64,000 nucleotides of DNA, taken from NCBI RefSeq assembly GCF_003018255.1, contig NZ_CP027440.1, one strand, 5' to 3'. The stretch's first letter is position 1. Each line of letters begins with the position of its first letter. This DNA is from Escherichia coli (lineage in GTDB: Bacteria > Pseudomonadota > Gammaproteobacteria > Enterobacterales > Enterobacteriaceae). The translations under genes and the position numbers were made by a program. The notes below the pieces were generated by a model. That model ran no database searches. It saw only the letters and a program-made list of their open reading frames with translations, and was not told the origin of the DNA. This document shows positions 1 through 12,775 of the stretch, one piece after another.

Positions 1-1065
1 GAGGATCACAATACTGCGGCCTTCCGGCGTTTCGTCGGCCAGCGAAGCCAGTTGTGCTGCGTCGGCCAGCGTTTTTTCCTCTACGCCCTGCGCAGGGATA
101 AACTCTGATGCCTGACGGTTACCGAGGGTGATGGTGCCAGTTTTATCCAGCAGCAGGACGTCCACGTCGCCCGCCGCTTCAACTGCACGCCCGCTGGTGG
201 CAATCACATTCGCGCCCAACATCCGGCTCATCCCGGCGACGCCGATCGCTGACAACAGGCCGCCAATAGTGGTTGGGATCAGACAGACCAACAGCGCCAC
301 CAGTACCGTTACGCTGACTGCATTACCACCCCATGCGGAAAACGGCCACAGCGTGGCGGTTGCCAGTAAAAAGACGATAGTCAGGGCAATCAGCAGGATG
401 GTCAGGGCAATCTCGTTCGGCGTTTTGCGTCGCTGCGCGCCTTCCACCATCGCGATCATCCGATCCAGAAATGTCTCGCCGGGGTTAACGCTGCACTCAA
501 TCACCAGCCAGTCAGAAAGAATACGCGTGCCGCCAGTGACGGAGGCAAAATCGCCGCCGGATTCACGGATCACCGGAGCCGATTCCCCGGTGATGGCGCT
601 TTCATCGACCGATGCGCCGCCTTCAATGACTTCACCATCGCAGGGGATAATATCGCCAGCTTCTACCAGTACGATATCGCCTTTACGCAGTTGATCTGCG
701 GGAACTTTGTCCGCCGCAGCGCCATATTTCGGCTCACGCAGCTTGCGGGCAAAGGCAGTTTTTTTCACCCCTTTCAGACTATTGGCTTGCGCTTTACTGC
801 GGCCTTCTGCCAGCGCCTCGGCGAAATTAGCGAACAGTACGGTGACCCACAGCCAGCCGCTAATTGCCGCGCTAAACAGCGCATTGCCAGGCATCGCGCC
901 GCTTGCCATTGCAATGCTAATAAAGGTGGTTAACAGACTGCCGATCCAGACGATAAACATCACTGGATTACGCCATTGCGCCTGCGGGTTTAATTTTTTC
1001 ACCGCTTCTTTCAGCGCCTGAACGACAAGTGTTGGTTCGAATAGCGCCAGTTGTTTACGACTCAT
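1..1065 (-). CDS. kdpB: Potassium-transporting P-type ATPase subunit B, N-terminal part; gene continues past window start
   Basis: Minus-strand frame starting [15 protein letters not shown] at 1065 (ATG complement 1063-1065), open to position 1; sits downstream of kdpA in kdpFABC order. Confidence 0.85.
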
Positions 1066-1087
1066 ATTCAGTGCTCACTCAATATCA

Positions 1088-2761
1088 TCAGGAGAGATAT
1101 TCCGCCACCGGACCAAGCGCCAGGGCAGGGATAAAGGTCAGTGCGCCAACCAGCAACACGGTGCCGATTAACAGGCCAACAAACAGCGGGCCGTGCGTTG
1201 GCAGCGTGCCGGAGCTGGCGGGCTGGCTCTTTTTACTCACCAGCGAACCGGCAATTGCCATCACCGGGATAATTACCCCGAAGCGACCGACAAACATGCA
1301 GAACGCCAGCAAACAGTTCCAGAATGGAGAGTTGGCGCTTAATCCGGCAAAGGCGCTGCCGTTGTTGTTAGCGGCGGATGACACGGCGTACAGCACTTCG
1401 CTAAAACCATGCGGGCCAGGGTTGAGCATGGCGCTACGTCCGGCGTCGGTCATCATTGCCAGCGCCGCGCCCATCAGCGCCAGCGTTGGGGTGACCAGAA
1501 TCGCCAGCGCGGTCAGTTTCATCTCGCGTACGTCGATTTTTTTACCCAGATATTCCGGTGTACGACCAATCATCAGCCCAGCAATAAACACCGCCAGCAG
1601 GACAAACAGCATCATGCCGTAAAGACCAGAACCGACACCGCCGAACACCACTTCACCAATTTGCATCAGCCACATCGGCACCATGCCACCAAGAGCGGTA
1701 AACGAATCATGCATCGCAATCACCGCGCCACAGGAAGCCGCCGTAGTCACGACCGCAAACAGGCTACTGACCAGCACGCCGAAACGACTCTCTTTACCTT
1801 CCATATTGATGCTGCTGTCCGCGCCCAGTGCCAGCAGATGCGGATTACCCTGAACTTCTGCCCACATCACCACGCCTGTGCAGATGATAAAAATCACTGA
1901 CATCGCCCACAGCAACATGCGCCCCTGACGGCGATCGCCCGCCACTTCGCCAAAGGCAAAGCACAGCGCTGTTGGGATCAAGAAGATCGCCAGCATCTGC
2001 ACGAAGTTGGTCAGTGCGGTTGGGTTTTCAAACGGATGCGACGAGTTGGCATTAAAGAAGCCACCGCCGTTAGTGCCGAGCATCTTGATCGCTTCCTGAG
2101 AAGCTACAGGCCCCATGGGTAACAGCTGTTGCGCTCCTTCAACGGTATTCACCGCCTGATAGGGCAGAAAGTTTTGCAGCGCACCTTGTTGAATAAAAAA
2201 CAATGCGATCAACAACGCCACAGGGACTAGCACCCATAACGTGATGCGTAGCAGATCGACCCAGGCATTCCCGAGTGTGCTCATGCTCTGGCGGGTAAAT
2301 GCACGTATGAGGGCAAAAATCACCGCAATCCCGCTGGCGGCAGAAAGAAAGTTTTGCACCGTTAAGCCCGCCATCTGGCTGAAATAGCTCAACGTGGTTT
2401 CACCGCTGTAAGATTGCCAGTTGGTATTTGTGACAAAGCTGACGGCGGTATTCAGCGCCAGATCCCACGACAGTCCTGGCAACTGCTGTGGATTAAGCGG
2501 CAGATAGTGCTGACCGAGCAACATAAAAAACAGCACCGCCAGCCCCAGTATATTCAGGCCAAGAATGGCTGAGAGATACTGCTTCCAGTTCATCTCGCGG
2601 TCAGAGACGCCAAGCGCGCGAAAAAGTACGCGCTCAACGCCCGTCGTACCGGGAAGAGGAATGTCATTAATCAGCCGCGCCAGCCCGCTGCCTAAAGGAC
2701 GCGCCAGCACCATTAACACCAGTAAAAACGTGGCAATCAGTAAGAACCCTTGCGCAGCCAT
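1088..2761 (-). CDS. kdpA: Potassium-transporting ATPase subunit A (557 aa)
   Basis: ORF 1088..2905 contains the KdpA sequence from [24 protein letters not shown]; start ATG at 2759-2761 overlaps the kdpF stop (ATGA). Confidence 0.95.
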
Positions 2762-2850
2762 CAGAACGCCTCCGCATTGATCAGGGCATAAACCAGATAA
2801 CCCAGTAATAAAAACACCAGCAACACGCCGGCTATCACGCCTGCACTCAC
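2761..2850 (-). CDS. kdpF: KdpF, 29-aa membrane peptide of the Kdp complex, GTG start
   Basis: Translation [30 protein letters not shown] read from the C-terminus of ORF 2761..2964; stop overlaps kdpA start. Confidence 0.85.
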
Positions 2851-2923
2851 AGTGCACCTCCAGTGGCCTAAAAGTGATACCGGAAGAGTAGAATTCTGGC
2901 TGCAAAGATTTCGCAAAAATCTG

Positions 2924-2955
2924 CGGGCGGGGTGTAAAAAAAGTATAAAAATGGC
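2924..2955 (-). promoter_or_regulatory. Probable KdpE response-regulator box upstream of kdpF
   Basis: Minus-strand sequence CATTTTTATACTTTTTTTACACCCCGCCCG with TTTATA/TTTACA half-sites, about 75-105 bp upstream of the kdpF start; matches the KdpE operator as I remember it. Confidence 0.55.
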
Positions 2956-3162
2956 AAAAGCCATGATTTAACTAATGTTTAGTATTAATTTAACCTTTGT
3001 GTAACTTAATTACGGTATGAATGTAAATAAACCATCAATAAGCAAAAATAAGTGGTCGGATGAGTAGTAAAATTACACAAAAGGCGGTACTATTTTCATC
3101 AGATAAACAAATTCATTTTTCCGGTGCTATTCACCGGGTAGATACAAAAGGGGGAGAAAAGT

Positions 3163-3369
3163 ATGGAACTCTACAGAGAATATCCTGCATGGCTTATCTT
3201 TTTACGCCGTACTTATGCGGTTGCAGCGGGCGTTCTGGCGCTGCCTTTCATGCTTTTCTGGAAAGACCGCGCCCGCTTTTACAGCTACCTGCACCGCGTC
3301 TGGTCGAAAACCAGCGATAAACCGGTGTGGATGGATCAGGCCGAAAAGGCGACTGGTGATTTTTACTGA
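3163..3369 (+). CDS. ybfA: Small conserved membrane protein YbfA (68 aa)
   Basis: [71 protein letters not shown]; GGAG-type RBS upstream. Confidence 0.85.
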
Positions 3370-3393
3370 TTGCTGAGTTCTGAATACATTGAA

Positions 3394-3427
3394 AACCGCC
3401 AGCGGAAACGCTGGCGGTTTTTTTTGT
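3394..3427 (+). terminator. Rho-independent terminator after ybfA
   Basis: Hairpin CCGCCAGCG-GAAA-CGCTGGCGG followed by a run of 8 T. Confidence 0.8.
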
Positions 3428-3613
3428 ATCAGGAAGATGTTCAGAGGAATATTTAGACACCGTTATACCAATCGAAACATATATTCATGAAATATATATA
3501 AATATTTTCCTAATTGTTCTTATCTGACAGATATCTCACTTAAGGCTTTCTTATAAATCTGTAGGGTTTCGCCTGTCAGCAGACAAATAACCCGATAAAA
3601 CAAGGATGAGCAG

Positions 3614-6600
3614 ATGAGCGGAAAACCGGCGGCGCGTCAGGGCGACATGACGCAGTATGGCGGTAGCATTGTTCAGGATTCAGCCGGGGTACGTATTGGT
3701 GCCCCCACCGGCGTGGCCTGTTCGGTGTGCCCCGGCGGGGTGACGTCCGGCCATCCGGTCAATCCGCTGCTCGGTGCGAAGGTCCTTCCCGGCGAAACCG
3801 ACCTTGCCCTGCCCGGCCCGCTGCCGTTCATCCTCTCCCGCACCTACAGCAGTTACCGGACAAAAACGCCCGCGCCGGTGGGGAGCCTCGGCCCCGGCTG
3901 GAAAATGCCTGCGGATATCCGCTTACAGCTGCGCGATAACACACTGATACTCAGTGATAACGGCGGCAGAAGCCTGTATTTTGAGCACCTGTTTCCCGGT
4001 GAGGACGGTTACAGCCGCAGCGAGTCACTCTGGCTGGTGCGCGGCGGCGTGGCGAAACTGGATGAAGGTCACCGGCTGGCCGCACTCTGGCAGGCGCTGC
4101 CGGAAGAGCTTCGCCTGAGTCCGCATCGTTATCTGGCGAAGAACAGTCCGCAGGGGCCGTGGTGGGTATTCGGCTGGTGTGAGCGGGTGCCGGAGGCGGA
4201 TGAGGTGCTGCCTGCGCCGCTGCCGCCGTACCGGATACTGACCGGGCTGGTGGACCGCTTCGGGCGCACACAGACGTTTCACCGTGAGGCTGGCGGCGAA
4301 TTCAGCGGCGAAATCACCGGCGTGACCGACGGCGCAGGCCGTCACTTCCGGCTGGTACTGACCACGCAGGCGCTGCGGGCAGAAGAGGCCCGGCAGAAGG
4401 CCACTTCCGGCGGGACGGAACCGTCCGCTTTTCCTGATACCCAGCCGGACTACACGGAATATGGCCGGGACAACGGTATCCGTCTGTCTGCCGTGTGGCT
4501 GACGCACGACCCGGAATACCCGGAGAATTTACCTGCCGCGCCGCTGGTACGCTATGGCTGGACGCCGCGCGGCGAACTGGCGGCGGTGTATGACCGCAGC
4601 AATACACAGGTGCGCAGCTTTACTTACGATGATAAATACCGGGGCCGGATGGTGGCGCACCGTCACACGGGCCGGCCGGAAATCCGTTACCGTTACGACA
4701 GTGACGGGCGGGTGACAGAACAGCTAAACCCGGCAGGCTTAAGCTACACGTATCAGTATGAGAAAGACCACATCACCATCACCGACAGCCTGGACCGCCG
4801 TGAAGTGCTGCACACGCAGGGCGAAGGCGGGCTGAAGCGGGTGGTGAAAAAGGAACACGCGGACGGCAGCGTCACGCAGAGTCAGTTTGACGCGGTGGGC
4901 AGGCTTAAGGCACAGACGGATGCCGCAGGCCGGACGACTGAGTACAGCCCGGATGTGGTGACCGGACTCATCACGCGCATCACCACGCCGGATGGCAGGG
5001 CATCGGCGTTTTACTATAACCACCACAGCCAGTTAACGTCAGCCACCGGGACTGACGGGCTGGAGTTGCGCAGGGAATATGATGAATCCGGCCGTCTGAT
5101 TCAGGAAACTGCCCCTGACGGCGATATCACCCGCTACCGTTATGATAATCTACACAGTGAATTACCCTGCGCAACGGAAGATGCCACCGGCAGCCGGAAA
5201 ACCATGACATGGAGCCGTTACGGTCAGTTGCTGACCGTCACTGACTGTTCCGGTTATGTAACCCGTTATGACCATGACCGTTTTGGTCAGATGACGGCGG
5301 CGCACCGCGAGGAAGGGCTGAGTCAGTATCGCGCATACGACAGCCGTGGACAGTTAATTGCGGTGAAAGACATGCAGGGCCATGAAACGCGGTATGAATA
5401 CAACGCCGCCGGTGACCTGACCGCCGTCATTGCCCCGGACGGCAGCAGAAACGGGACACAGTACGATACGTGGGGAAAGGCCATCCGTACCACGCAGGGT
5501 GGTCTGACGCGCAGTATGGAATACGATGCTGCCGGACGGGTCATCCGCCTGACCAGTGAAAACGGCAGCCACACCACCTTCCGTTACGATGTACTCGACC
5601 GGCTGATACAGGAAACCGGCTTTGACGGCCGCACACAGCGTTATCATCACGACCTGACCGGTAAACTTATCCGCAGCGAGGATGAGGGGCTGGTCACCCA
5701 CTGGCACTATGACGAAGCAGACCGCATCACGCACCGCACCGTGAAGGGTGAAACCGCAGAACAGTGGCGGTACGACGAACGCGGCTGGCTGACACAAATC
5801 AGCCATCTCAGCGAAGGCCACCGGGTGACGGTGCATTACGGGTATGATGAGAAAGGCCGCCTGACCGGTGAGCGCCAGACGGTACATCACCCGCAGACGG
5901 AAGCACTGCTCTGGCAGCATGAGACCAGACATGCGTACAACGCGCAGGGGCTGGCGAACCGCTGTATACCGGACAGCCTGCCCGCCGTGGAATGGCTGAC
6001 TTACGGCAGCGGCTGGCTGGCAGGCATGAAACTCGGCGACACACCGCTGGTGGATTTCACCCGTGACCGCCTGCACCGGGAAACGCTGCGCAGCTTCGGC
6101 CGTTATGAACTCACCACCGCTTATACCTCTGCCGGGCAGTTACAGAGCCAGCACCTGAACAGCCTGCAGTATGACCGCGATTACACCTGGAACGACAACG
6201 GCGAACTCATCCGCATCAGCAGCCCGCGACAGACCCGGAGTTACAGCTACAGCGACTCCGGCAGGCTGACCGGCGTCCACACCACCACCTCAAATCTGGA
6301 TATCCGCATCCCGTATGCCACGGACCCGGCAGGTAACCGCCTGCCCGACCCGGAGCTGCACCCGGACAGCACCCTCAGCATGTGGCCGGATAACCGTATC
6401 GCCCGTGACGCGCACTATCTTTACCAGTATGACCGTCACGGCAGGCTGACAGAGAAAACCGACCTCATCCCGGAAGGGGTTATCCGCACGGATGATGAGC
6501 GGACTCACCGGTACCATTACGACAGCCGGCACCGGCTGGTGCACTACACGCGGACACAATATGCAGAGCCGCTGGTCGAAAGTCGCTATCTTTACGACCC

Positions 6601-7300
6601 GCTGGGGCGCAGGGTGGCAAAACGGGTATGGCGGCGTGAACGGGACCTGACGGGCTGGATGTCGCTGTCACGGAAACCGGAAGTGACCTGGTACGGCTGG
6701 GACGGCGACCGGCTGACCACAATACAGAACGACAGAACCCGCATCCAGACGGTTTATCAGCCGGGGAGCTTCACGCCACTCATCAGGGTCGAAACTGCCA
6801 CCGGTGAGCTGGCGAAAACGCAGCGCCGCAGCCTGGCGGATGCGCTTCAGCAGTCCGGCGGTGAAGACGGTGGCAGTGTGGTGTTCCCGCCGGTGCTGGT
6901 GCAGATGCTCGACCGGCTGGAAAGTGAAATCCTGGCTGACCGGGTGAGTGAGGAAAGCCGCCGCTGGCTGGCATCGTGCGGCCTGACGGTGGAGCAGATA
7001 CAAAACCAGATGGACCCGGTGTACACGCCGGCGCGAAAAATCCACCTGTACCACTGCGACCATCGCGGCCTGCCGCTGGCGCTTGTCAGCACGGAAGGGG
7101 CAACAGAATGGTGCGCAGAATACGATGAATGGGGCAACCTGCTGAATGAAGAGAACCCGCACCAGCTGCAGCAGCTCATCCGCCTGCCGGGTCAGCAGTA
7201 TGATGAGGAGTCCGGCCTGTATTACAACCGCCACCGCTATTATGACCCGCTGCAGGGGCCAGGGAAAGATCACGTAACGCTGCTTTTTTGTACTAAATAA
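3614..7300 (+). CDS. rhsC: Rhs core protein of the RhsA/B/C subfamily (1228 aa), C-terminally truncated just before the DPxGL boundary; no toxin tip
   Basis: GC-rich ORF with YD-repeat core; N-terminus [21 protein letters not shown]; ends ...[13 protein letters not shown] then 13 unrelated codons ([13 protein letters not shown]) and stop. Confidence 0.9.
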
Positions 7301-8255
7301 TTCGCATTTTATGTTTAAAAATTGAGATATTCCTCATTACCTAAAGCTGTTTTTCATTGCTTATACATGATCAAATACTCCTTACATAATTAAGGAGAAC
7401 AAAATGGAACTTAAAAAATTGATGGAGCATATTTCTATTATCCCAGATTACAGACAAGCCTGGAAAGTGGAACATAAATTGTCTGATATTCTACTGTTGA
7501 CTATTTGTGACGTTATTTCTGGTGCAGAAGGTTGGGAAGATATAGAGGATTTTGGGGAAACACATCTCGATTTTTTAAAACAATATGGTGATTTTGAAAA
7601 TGGTATTCCTGTTCACGATACCATTGCCAGAGTTGTATCCTGTATCAGTCCTGCAAAATTTCACGAGTGCTTTATTAACTGGATGCGTGACTGCCATTCT
7701 TCAGATGATAAAGACGTCATTGCAATTGATGGAAAAACGCTCCGGCACTCTTATGACAAGAGTCGCCGCAAGGGAGCGATTCATGTCATTAGTGCGTTCT
7801 CAACAATGCACAGTCTGGTCATCGGACAGATCAAGACGGATGAGAAATCCAATGAGATCACAGCTATCCCGGAACTTCTTAACATGCTGAATATTAAAGG
7901 AAAAATAATCACAACTGATGCGATGGGTTGCCAGAAAGATATTGCAGAGAAGATACAAAAACAGGGCGGTGATTATTTATTCGCTGTAAAAGGAAACCAG
8001 GGGCGGCTAAATAAAGCCTTCGAGGAAAAATTTCCGCTGAAAGAATTAAATAATCCAGAGCATGGCAGTTACGCAATGAGTGAAAAGAGTCACGGCAGAG
8101 AAGAAATCCGTCTTCATATTGTTTGCGATGTCCCTGATGAACTTATTGATTTCACGTTTGAATGGAAAGGGCAGCCATGGACAGAAAATATCTGGCGTCA
8201 GTCCTTGCGGGGAGCGTGCTTTCGTAATTTTGCCCTGCTACAACAGGATTAACTT
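7258..8255 (+). mobile_element. H-repeat (ISAs1-family) element remnant fused to the 3-prime end of the Rhs core
   Basis: Rhs homology stops after the DPLQG codons at about 7257; AT-rich leader then an H-repeat transposase ORF with an internal deletion; no terminal inverted repeat seen at the right end. Confidence 0.7.
7404..8252 (+). pseudogene. H-repeat-associated (ISAs1-family) transposase, internally deleted and frameshifted (282 codons; intact homologs are about 378 aa as I recall)
   Basis: N-terminus [35 protein letters not shown] typical of YhhI/YdcC-like H-repeat proteins; after ...FEWKG the frame changes and the expected C-terminus ([16 protein letters not shown]) is readable in another frame at 8177-8227. 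Confidence 0.75.
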
Positions 8256-8312
8256 CACAAACATCATTTGCCAACGTCTACACTTACTCCTGTTAATATC
8301 TCAGGAGCAGTA

Positions 8313-8822
8313 ATGAATCAGCAACGATTTGATGAAAGCACTCTAATCCGTATCTTCGCGCTTTATGAGTTACATCGACTGAAAGAACATGGCTTAACGC
8401 GCGGGGCACTCAACGATTATCACAGCCGCTATAAACTCGTCTTTCTGGCCCATTCCCAGCCCGAGTACCGCAAACTTGGCCCGTTCGTGGCTGATATTCA
8501 CCAGTGGCAAAATCTGGATGACTATTACAACCAGTACCGCCAACGCGTAGTTGTTTTGCTTTCTCACCCCGCCAACCGACGTGACCACACCAATGTTTTG
8601 ATGCACGTTCAGGGTTATTTTCGCCCTCATATTGATTCCACAGAACGCCAGCAGCTGGCGGCGCTTATCGACAGTTATCGCGGTGGCGAGCAACCGCTTC
8701 TTGCGCCGCTGATGCGTATCAAACACTATATGGCGCTTTATCCTGACGCCTGGCTTTCAGGGCAGCGTTATTTCGAACTTTGGCCGCGTGTGATTAACTT
8801 GCGCCATTCAGGAGTTTTATGA
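8313..8822 (+). CDS. ybgA: DUF1722 protein YbgA (169 aa)
   Basis: ORF MNQQRFDESTLIRIFALYELHRLKEHGLTRG...; stop overlaps phr start. Confidence 0.85.
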   Translation: MNQQRFDESTLIRIFALYELHRLKEHGLTRGALNDYHSRYKLVFLAHSQPEYRKLGPFVADIHQWQNLDDYYNQYRQRVVVLLSHPANRRDHTNVLMHVQGYFRPHIDSTERQQLAALIDSYRGGEQPLLAPLMRIKHYMALYPDAWLSGQRYFELWPRVINLRHSGVL

Positions 8823-10237
8823 CTACCCATCTGGTCTGGTTTCGCCAGGATTTACGTCAGCATGATAATCTCGCGCTGGCTGCCGCCTGCCGCAATTCGT
8901 CTGCAAGCGTGCTGGCGTTGTATATCGCTACACCACGCCAGTGGGCGGCGCATAATATGTCGCCGCGTCAGGCTGAATTTATCAATGCACAACTGAACGG
9001 GCTACAAATCGCGCTGGCGGAAAAAGGCATTCCTTTGCTGTTTCATGAAGTGGATGACTTTGCCGCCAGCGTCGAAATAGTTAAACAGGTGTGCGCGGAA
9101 AATCGTGTTACCCATCTGTTTTATAACTATCAGTATGAGGTGAATGAGCGGGCGCGGGATGTGCAGGCTGAGAGGGCGCTGCGTAACGTGGTGTGTGAAG
9201 GATTTGACGACGGCGTGATCCTGCCGCCGGGGGCGGTGATGACTGGCAATCATGAGATGTACAAAGTCTTTACGCCATTTAAAAACGCCTGGCTTAAACG
9301 GCTGCGAGAAGGGATGCCGGAGTGCGTCGCTGCGCCAAAAGTACGTAGTAGCGGATCGATAGATCCCGCGCCATCCATTACGCTGAATTATCCTCGTCAG
9401 CCTTTCGATACTGCGCATTTCCCGGTGGAAGAGAAAGCGGCGATTGCGCAATTACGCCAGTTTTGCCAGAACGGTGCCGGAGAGTATGAGCAACAGCGAG
9501 ATTTCCCTGCGGTAGAAGGCACCAGCCGTTTGTCCGCCAGCCTGGCAACGGGCGGGTTATCGCCTCGCCAGTGTTTGCATCGCCTGTTGGCGGAACAGCC
9601 GCAGGCGCTGGACGGTGGGGCCGGTAGTATCTGGCTTAATGAGCTGATCTGGCGCGAGTTTTACCGTCATCTGATAACGTATTACCCCTCGCTGTGTAAA
9701 CATCGTCCGTTTATTGTCTGGACCGACCGCGTGCAGTGGCAGAGCAATTCCGCGCATTTAAAGGCCTGGCAGGAAGGCAAAACGGGATACCCGATTGTTG
9801 ATGCTGCCATGCGTCAGCTTAACAGCACCGGCTGGATGCATAACCGGCTACGGATGATTACAGCCAGTTTTTTGGTGAAAGATTTATTGATCGACTGGCG
9901 CGAAGGTGAGCGATATTTCATGTCGCAGCTGATTGATGGTGATTTGGCAGCCAATAACGGTGGCTGGCAGTGGGCCGCTTCAACCGGAACCGATGCAGCG
10001 CCGTATTTTCGTATTTTTAACCCGACAACCCAGGGCGAGAAATTTGACCGTGAGGGCGAGTTTATCCGCCAGTGGCTACCGGAACTGCGCGATGTGCCAG
10101 GGAAAGTGGTGCATGAGCCGTGGAAGTGGGCGCAGAAAGCAGGTGTGACGCTGGATTATCCGCAACCGATAGTTGATCACAAAGAGGCAAGGCTGCGAAC
10201 GCTGGCAGCGTACGAAGAAGCGAGGAAAGGAGCCTGA
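8819..10237 (+). CDS. phr: Deoxyribodipyrimidine photolyase (472 aa)
   Basis: MTTHLVWFRQDLR... with FAD-binding C-terminal region (GWMHNRLRMITASFLVKDL, WQWAASTGTDAAPYFRIFNP). Confidence 0.95.
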   Translation: MTTHLVWFRQDLRQHDNLALAAACRNSSASVLALYIATPRQWAAHNMSPRQAEFINAQLNGLQIALAEKGIPLLFHEVDDFAASVEIVKQVCAENRVTHLFYNYQYEVNERARDVQAERALRNVVCEGFDDGVILPPGAVMTGNHEMYKVFTPFKNAWLKRLREGMPECVAAPKVRSSGSIDPAPSITLNYPRQPFDTAHFPVEEKAAIAQLRQFCQNGAGEYEQQRDFPAVEGTSRLSASLATGGLSPRQCLHRLLAEQPQALDGGAGSIWLNELIWREFYRHLITYYPSLCKHRPFIVWTDRVQWQSNSAHLKAWQEGKTGYPIVDAAMRQLNSTGWMHNRLRMITASFLVKDLLIDWREGERYFMSQLIDGDLAANNGGWQWAASTGTDAAPYFRIFNPTTQGEKFDREGEFIRQWLPELRDVPGKVVHEPWKWAQKAGVTLDYPQPIVDHKEARLRTLAAYEEARKGA

Positions 10238-10279
10238 TAAAACGCAGCGAGCGTCTTATCAGGCATCGGTGCTGGCCTG

Positions 10280-11944
<1,665 letters not shown>

Positions 11945-12031
11945 TTAATATGTCAAAAGATTGGCTATCGACGAACAGGCGAGGTAACGCTATGTTAACG
12001 GTGTAGCTATCAGAATACGGAAGGCGCGAAG

Positions 12032-12775
12032 ATGAAAAACACCGAACTGGAACAACTGATTAACGAAAAACTGAACAGCGCGGCGATTAGTGATTACGCG
12101 CCGAATGGTTTGCAGGTGGAAGGCAAAGAGACGGTGCAAAAAATTGTTACCGGTGTCACCGCCAGCCAGGCTTTGCTCGATGAAGCGGTGCGTCTGGGCG
12201 CGGATGCGGTCATTGTGCATCATGGCTACTTCTGGAAAGGTGAATCTCCGGTCATTCGCGGAATGAAGCGTAACCGTTTAAAAACGTTGCTGGCGAATGA
12301 TATCAACCTGTATGGCTGGCATCTGCCCCTGGACGCGCATCCGGAGCTGGGTAATAACGCACAACTGGCGGCGTTACTGGGGATCACGGTCATGGGCGAA
12401 ATTGAGCCGTTGGTGCCGTGGGGCGAACTGACCATGCCTGTGCCGGGACTGGAACTGGCCTCCTGGATTGAAGCGCGTCTGGGACGTAAGCCGTTATGGT
12501 GTGGCGATACCGGACCTGAGGTGGTCCAGCGCGTCGCCTGGTGCACGGGCGGCGGGCAAAGTTTTATCGATAGCGCCGCGCGTTTTGGCGTGGATGCTTT
12601 TATTACTGGCGAAGTTTCTGAACAGACCATTCATTCAGCCCGCGAGCAGGGATTGCATTTTTATGCTGCGGGTCACCATGCCACTGAACGCGGTGGTATT
12701 CGCGCGTTGAGCGAGTGGCTGAATGAAAATACCGATCTTGATGTGACCTTTATTGATATTCCTAATCCTGCATAA
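12032..12775 (+). CDS. ybgI: NIF3-family metal-binding protein YbgI (247 aa)
   Basis: ORF MKNTELEQLINEKLNSAAISDYAPNGLQVEGKETVQKIVTGVTAS... Confidence 0.9.
   Translation: MKNTELEQLINEKLNSAAISDYAPNGLQVEGKETVQKIVTGVTASQALLDEAVRLGADAVIVHHGYFWKGESPVIRGMKRNRLKTLLANDINLYGWHLPLDAHPELGNNAQLAALLGITVMGEIEPLVPWGELTMPVPGLELASWIEARLGRKPLWCGDTGPEVVQRVAWCTGGGQSFIDSAARFGVDAFITGEVSEQTIHSAREQGLHFYAAGHHATERGGIRALSEWLNENTDLDVTFIDIPNPA

Follow-up and report, generated by a model that had tools for sequence, protein, structure and literature searches.

The ybfD locus of Escherichia coli, very probably an internally deleted H-repeat (ISEc1, ISAs1 family) fixed in the chromosome with both of its ends

The DNA analysed here, called the window, is a stretch of 64,000 nucleotides from Escherichia coli (NCBI RefSeq assembly GCF_003018255.1, contig NZ_CP027440.1). 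Between an RhsC core and the ybgA-phr genes it carries a transposase ORF of 282 codons (7404-8252, + strand; ORF list and translation), lying within a shortened copy of the element known as the H-repeat. The features of the region, from left to right, are the following:

3614..7300, + strand: RhsC core ORF of 1228 codons, without the C-terminal toxin tip; it enters the left end of the H-repeat directly and terminates 13 codons inside it
7260..8237, + strand: defective H-repeat/ISEc1 (ISAs1-family) element, the ybfD locus, 978 bp against 1291 bp for intact copies (blastn against the intact yhhI element, junction scan, annotation in near-identical genomes)
7260..7279, + strand: left terminal inverted repeat CAGGGAAAGATCACGTAACG, by alignment with the left ends of yhhI, ydcC and the O157 H-repeat, all CAGGGAAAGATCA...; from 7260 the repeat of the window element reads CAGGGAAAGATCACG
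7362-7390: weak promoter-like match, from reading of the sequence; the promoter scan gives chance level only
7392..7397, + strand: Shine-Dalgarno-like AAGGAG, 6 nt 5' of the ATG, read from the sequence
7404..8171, + strand: native part of the transposase ORF, codons 1-256, with the DDE_Tnp_1_assoc domain and the first ~70% of the DDE domain (putative catalytic residues D109 and D172)
8170..8172, + strand: deletion junction, 313 bp missing (element nt ~912/914 to 1224/1226), by junction scan against yhhI and ydcC
8172..8252, + strand: out-of-frame tail of 26 codons plus TAA (8250-8252), crossing the right inverted repeat into flanking DNA (ORF list and translation)
8177..8227, + strand: relic of the native C-terminus, 16 aa, in the original, now displaced frame (translation compared with the YhhI C-terminus)
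8218..8237, + strand: right terminal inverted repeat, kept: GCTTTCGTAATTTTGCCCTG, reverse complement CAGGGCAAAATTACGAAAGC (alignment with intact copies)
8313..8822, + strand: ybgA, first gene of ybgA-phr, with its ATG at 8313, starting 75 bp past the right end of the element (annotation of genomes L001, L002 and L014)

The ybfD, yhhI and ydcC loci of strain K-12 served as comparison. Intact yhhI and ydcC, whose ends read CAGGGAAAGATCA... and ...CTTGCCCTG, each measure 1291 bp and contain a single uninterrupted ORF of 378 codons; intact paralogues are named 'ISAs1-like element ISEc1 family transposase' by PGAP. A blastn search of the whole window with the yhhI element returned just two hits, one matching element nt 1-913 to 7260-8172 (96.4% identity, E=0) and the other element nt 1216-1291 to 8162-8237 (E=2e-25), which together represent the only H-repeat copy in the 64 kb. 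The window ORF is identical to K-12 YhhI at 249 of its first 256 codons, down to the FEWKG peptide, which ends at 8171, and continues beyond it in another frame, as the original prediction had noticed. A scan for promoters and terminators gave chance-level matches only (three promoters found against 3.3 expected).

Alignment with the intact yhhI and ydcC copies, which the original prediction had proposed as a check, makes it possible to size what is missing. There is a single gap of 313 bp at 8170-8172, corresponding to 104 codons plus one nucleotide, in good agreement with the roughly 100 internal codons that had been estimated. Because of the supernumerary nucleotide, the frame shifts after codon 256 and 26 foreign codons follow. 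The native frame restarts at 8171 (AAMDRK...), ahead of 8177, and the peptide encoded at 8177-8227 matches the C-terminus of YhhI upon translation, so the claim that the original C-terminus is still readable out of frame holds. The exact breakpoint can be placed no more closely than to a 2-nt GC microhomology, which forms part of an imperfect 11-nt repeat (ATGGAAAGGGC / ATGCGAAAAGC). A C-terminal peptide readable in a second frame just past the switch could also be expected from a programmed two-frame arrangement of the IS1/IS3 type, or from a sequencing or assembly error, and no deletion would then be needed. Such a reading is scarcely credible, since intact H-repeats carry one continuous ORF, the frame change falls exactly at the 313-bp gap relative to these copies, and the same junction recurs in ~3,000 independently assembled complete genomes (see below).

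The original prediction had further assumed that the right inverted repeat disappeared with the deleted codons. This turned out to be wrong: the last 65 bp of the element (8173-8237) are present and identical to yhhI at 62 of 65 positions, with the terminal ...CGTAATTTTGCCCTG / ...TTTTGCCCTG ending at 8237, and the repeat itself occupies 8218-8237, meaning that the deletion is strictly internal. An element truncated at one end, a reading for which the continuation of the ORF in a new frame was the whole argument, is thus practically excluded, the more so as the boundary between element and flank is the same in all alleles. The sequences adjoining the element (...CTGCAGGGGC on the left, CTACAACAGG... 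on the right) display no direct repeat; the intact K-12 copies examined lack one as well, so this absence says little.

The consequences of the deletion for the protein can be followed with domain models. In the Pfam search, the window ORF matches PF13808 (DDE_Tnp_1_assoc) over aa 8-94 and PF01609 (DDE_Tnp_1) over aa 102-232, both above the gathering scores, with the second match covering profile positions 3-139 of 200, which leaves the DDE catalytic domain incomplete. The NCBIfam model for ISAs1-family transposases, NF033564, is likewise matched in part (profile 1-229 of 314, E=6.8e-87, 291.6 bits for a cutoff of 70). For comparison, YhhI matches PF01609 over profile positions 3-200 of 200, ending at aa 343, and NF033564 over 1-314 of 314, ending at aa 344. 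The YhhI residues 257-360 that are deleted in the window copy contain HWHVENKLHWRLD, with an HWHVEN motif that we take, from the signature of IS4/ISAs1-type DDE transposases, to bear the third catalytic residue, E306. The deletion would therefore have removed this glutamate and kept D109 and D172; a sequence search of the PDB for a solved structural homologue on which to map the DDE triad found none. With the C-terminal third of its catalytic domain gone, the window copy is predicted to be unable to make an active transposase.

It is on this point that the immobility of the element has to be judged. The original prediction deduced it from the loss of an end, a ground that falls with the presence of the right repeat. 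The conclusion itself stands for autonomous transposition: it is reasonable for a copy whose catalytic domain lacks its C-terminal third, and it agrees with the fixed, single-copy site that the element occupies in thousands of genomes. As both ends are present, mobilisation in trans may be formally possible. According to PMC3032704, H-repeats in general have not been observed to transpose.

Over the 913 bp it retains, the window copy shows 96.4% DNA identity to intact H-repeats (yhhI and ydcC of K-12, and the O157:H7 copy beside ybgA), with which it shares the inverted repeats, the N-terminal DDE_Tnp_1_assoc domain and the first two presumed catalytic aspartates. Both of its ends are homologous to those of the intact copies (CAGGG...). 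It differs from them by its length, 978 bp instead of the full 1291 bp, and by the lack of element nt ~914-1226 (aa 257-360) with the ensuing frameshift, whereas the 378-aa transposase of the intact elements spans the whole family model. The arrangement, with two terminal repeats around a transposase gene disabled by internal deletion, is that of internally deleted non-autonomous IS derivatives; unlike these, the window copy gives no sign of amplification or movement, its junction being found once per genome and at one site.

In the genomes closest to the window, the region bears the annotation 'ybfD: ISAs1 family transposase' and is marked as a pseudogene that lacks its C-terminus; it lies there between an Rhs core fragment and ybgA-phrB-dtpD. 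The order rhsC ... ybfD - ybgA - phr - dtpD, together with the deletion junction, matches K-12 b0706, which identifies the window copy as an orthologue of ybfD by position and by junction. Indeed, K-12 ybfD (b0706, 'H repeat-associated putative transposase YbfD') lies like the window copy at the RhsC end, directly upstream of ybgA-phr, and shares with it the 313-bp deletion junction, the right inverted repeat and the right flank. Differences between the two alleles affect 35 of 768 ORF positions. One change in K-12 turns TGG into TAG at codon 254, leaving 253 aa instead of 282. In addition, the K-12 element has the right end of the neighbouring ybfL H-repeat in place of its left inverted repeat, while the window copy keeps its own, which abuts the Rhs core. 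Taken together, we hold with high confidence, on the basis of these sequence comparisons, that the region is the known and annotated ybfD of E. coli, a decaying, non-autonomous H-repeat (ISEc1, ISAs1 family) that has both ends and an internal deletion and persists as a fixed relic.

The Rhs core that runs into the element deserves a description of its own. Strains JNE23-011 and JNE112863 match the cyd-tol segment of the window at 100% identity. Compared with the first of these (L014), its nearest relative, the window lacks 2,850 bp, which encode the toxin tip, a ybfC-like gene, an NTF2-fold immunity gene and a DUF6258 gene. Positions 1-7259 of the window correspond to 86-7349 of this relative (99.3% identity) and positions 7069-9500 to its positions 10009-12440 (99.9%). 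The two matches overlap in a 191-bp repeat (7069-7259), which is present in the relative at the end of the main core and in an orphan core fragment. The missing 2,850 bp were lost by recombination between these two copies, with the crossover within the repeat; the sole site that tells the copies apart, at 7085, has the letter of the main one. A single-piece match to the RhsC/H-repeat fusion was found in no complete E. coli genome of the collection searched.

What adjoins ybfD on the left depends on the strain, and the change falls precisely at the left inverted repeat. An Rhs core fragment is found there in the window and in its near-twin (L001), a fragment of the ybfQ H-repeat in L008 and L013, the right end of ybfL, replacing the repeat, in K-12, an IS1 fragment in L007, and a group II intron that truncates the repeat in L011.

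The distribution of the deletion was studied in two ways. In the first, the window allele and 10 other ybfD alleles spanning the range of identity were aligned with three intact copies, and eleven further alleles were then added. The junction (GAAAGGGC/AGC) and the right boundary (CCCTG/CTACAACAGGATTAACTTCACAAA, also CCCTG/CTACAACAGG) are identical in 22 out of 22 alleles from diverse strains. In the second, 71-nt queries centred on the junction were run against 5,426 complete E. coli genomes, with an E-value cutoff that excludes half-matches from intact copies. The window-type junction was detected in 381 genomes, that of the K-12 type in 2,815. Each genome has the junction in one place, save two genomes, of the K-12 type, that have two copies; all places but one, also of the K-12 type and located on a plasmid, are chromosomal. 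A query running from the junction to ybgA, which was read by the number of pieces matched, had a single-piece, full-length match in 35 of 60 evenly spaced records. Since junction and right flank are the same in every one of the 22 alleles, the deletion goes back to a single old event; it occupies one fixed site and is found in ~3,000 of the 5,426 complete genomes searched (~55-60%). A larger count of 4,952 genomes, obtained at a coverage of at least 80% in a megablast search with the whole region, was rejected as a measure of deletion alleles: intact H-repeats located elsewhere cover 83% of the query.

Strain MB9-1, of serotype O157:H7, has an intact 1291-bp H-repeat with a 378-aa transposase beside ybgA (L005, 3201-4491). 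It was not accepted as proof of the undeleted ancestor, for its right flank has ~63 bp extra and its left flank is different.

An alternative to a decaying relic would be that the truncated protein, with an N-terminal domain of the DNA-binding type and part of the catalytic core, has been domesticated as a conserved short isoform and is kept by selection, for instance as an inhibitor of H-repeat transposition or as a regulator; that the 282-aa protein might be a naturally short, conserved form had been named in the original prediction as the finding that would overturn it. Several observations can be cited in its favour: the Shine-Dalgarno sequence is kept, ybfD is listed as a CDS in the K-12 reference (NP_415234.1, 253 aa), and in three of the 22 alleles (those of the window, its near-twin L001 and L011) the frame is open to 282 aa. 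A further six alleles, whose nucleotide sequences are all identical, have a stop only at codon 254 and so retain the 253 native codons of the K-12 type. However, nine alleles carry a TAA at codon 18 and four a TAA at codon 65, two of the latter being also frameshifted; overall, 13 of 22 alleles have a stop at one of these two codons or a frameshift. Identity classes with an early stop make up about half of the deletion-carrying genomes among the single-piece rows of the evenly spaced sample of 60 records. Moreover, the 26-aa out-of-frame tail varies by lineage or is absent, and PGAP classifies every sampled non-K-12 allele as a pseudogene ('incomplete... missing C-terminus', often 'internal stop' or 'frameshifted'). 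It is the deleted DNA that is conserved, and not the 282-aa ORF. From the state of the alleles, it seems clear that the 282-aa product is not a conserved isoform and that the frame is not maintained across the lineages carrying the deletion. As premature stops or frameshifts occur in most other lineages, no function of the product need be assumed, and we consider domestication improbable.

An argument on the side of a functional protein also comes from the pattern of substitutions, which is unlike that of a neutrally drifting pseudogene. Between the ybfD alleles of the window (7404-8171), L002 and L006-L013, pairwise dN/dS ratios are 0.1-0.25, similar to those of the adjacent functional genes ybgA+phr. 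Among deletion alleles, the mean pairwise difference is 0.026 at codon position 1, 0.026 at position 2 and 0.083 at position 3, compared with 0.062 in the leader and 0.089 in the tail; diversity at positions 1 and 2 is thus lower by a factor of ~3 than at position 3 or in the leader and the tail. This could be interpreted as meaning that truncated YbfD was under purifying selection for a long time, for example as a trans-acting inhibitor of H-repeat activity, and is being lost, repeatedly, only in recent times, in which case the pattern would reflect selection and not gene conversion. To this version, too, we attach a low probability. The low dN/dS is also found between alleles that share the stop at codon 18 or at codon 65, and between codon-18-stop alleles selection on the protein cannot act. 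In addition, several alleles have a mosaic structure, in which some tracts equal those of intact paralogues, so that coding-like variation can be imported.

Evidence for such mosaics came from a table of variable sites and from a permutation test on runs of concordant polymorphic sites. In the table, allele L008 equals yhhI over element nt ~409-880, and L009 and K-12 ybfD have a tract in common at 657-905. In the test, L008 and L013 are significant against intact copies (p<=0.005) and several pairs of alleles against each other (p<0.001). For gene conversion of the window allele with intact paralogues, the test was not significant (p=0.06-0.15). The flanks of L009 and L013 are nearly identical (dS 0.006), yet 16 sites of the ORF differ, which indicates that tracts were imported. 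Ectopic conversion from functional H-repeats and recombination between alleles, both of which bring in variation selected elsewhere, probably account for the coding-like pattern. This model falls short of fully explaining the window allele: the nearest intact ISEc1 to the window ORF in the 5,426 genomes is only 97.9% identical to it.

The neighbouring ybgA+phr segment (8313-9700 of the window, compared with L002 and L006-L013) has an unusually high synonymous divergence between E. coli strains, with dS up to 0.24. This suggests that the locus beside the Rhs element is deeply diverged or recombining.

A plausible history of the decaying relic can be proposed from these data. It would start with a copy of ISEc1 of 1291 bp, with imperfect CAGGG... 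terminal repeats and a DDE transposase gene of 378 codons, situated at the boundary between RhsC and ybgA. In an ancestor of much of E. coli, 313 bp would have been lost between two short imperfect repeats ending in GC, possibly through slippage or illegitimate recombination of the microhomology type, a mechanism to which the 2 nt of microhomology, and these only, point. The loss of codons 257-360 and of one base would have cost the catalytic domain its final ~30% and caused a frameshift, after which the ORF would run through 26 unrelated codons and the right inverted repeat to the stop at 8252, with the true C-terminus left behind in another frame. The outcome would be a single-copy relic fixed in the chromosome, with both ends kept and no sign of ever having moved, whose ORF happens to stay open over 282 aa in the small clade to which this strain belongs.

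What this adds to the original prediction is that both inverted repeats are kept, that the deletion measures exactly 313 bp, and that it is present in more than half of the complete genomes searched. By itself, ybfD matters little, as a named relic in K-12 and a pseudogene, according to the NCBI pipeline, in the other genomes sampled. Its mosaic alleles, with their coding-like pattern, illustrate that a dead IS copy can go on looking 'alive' thanks to its paralogues and to recombination between alleles.
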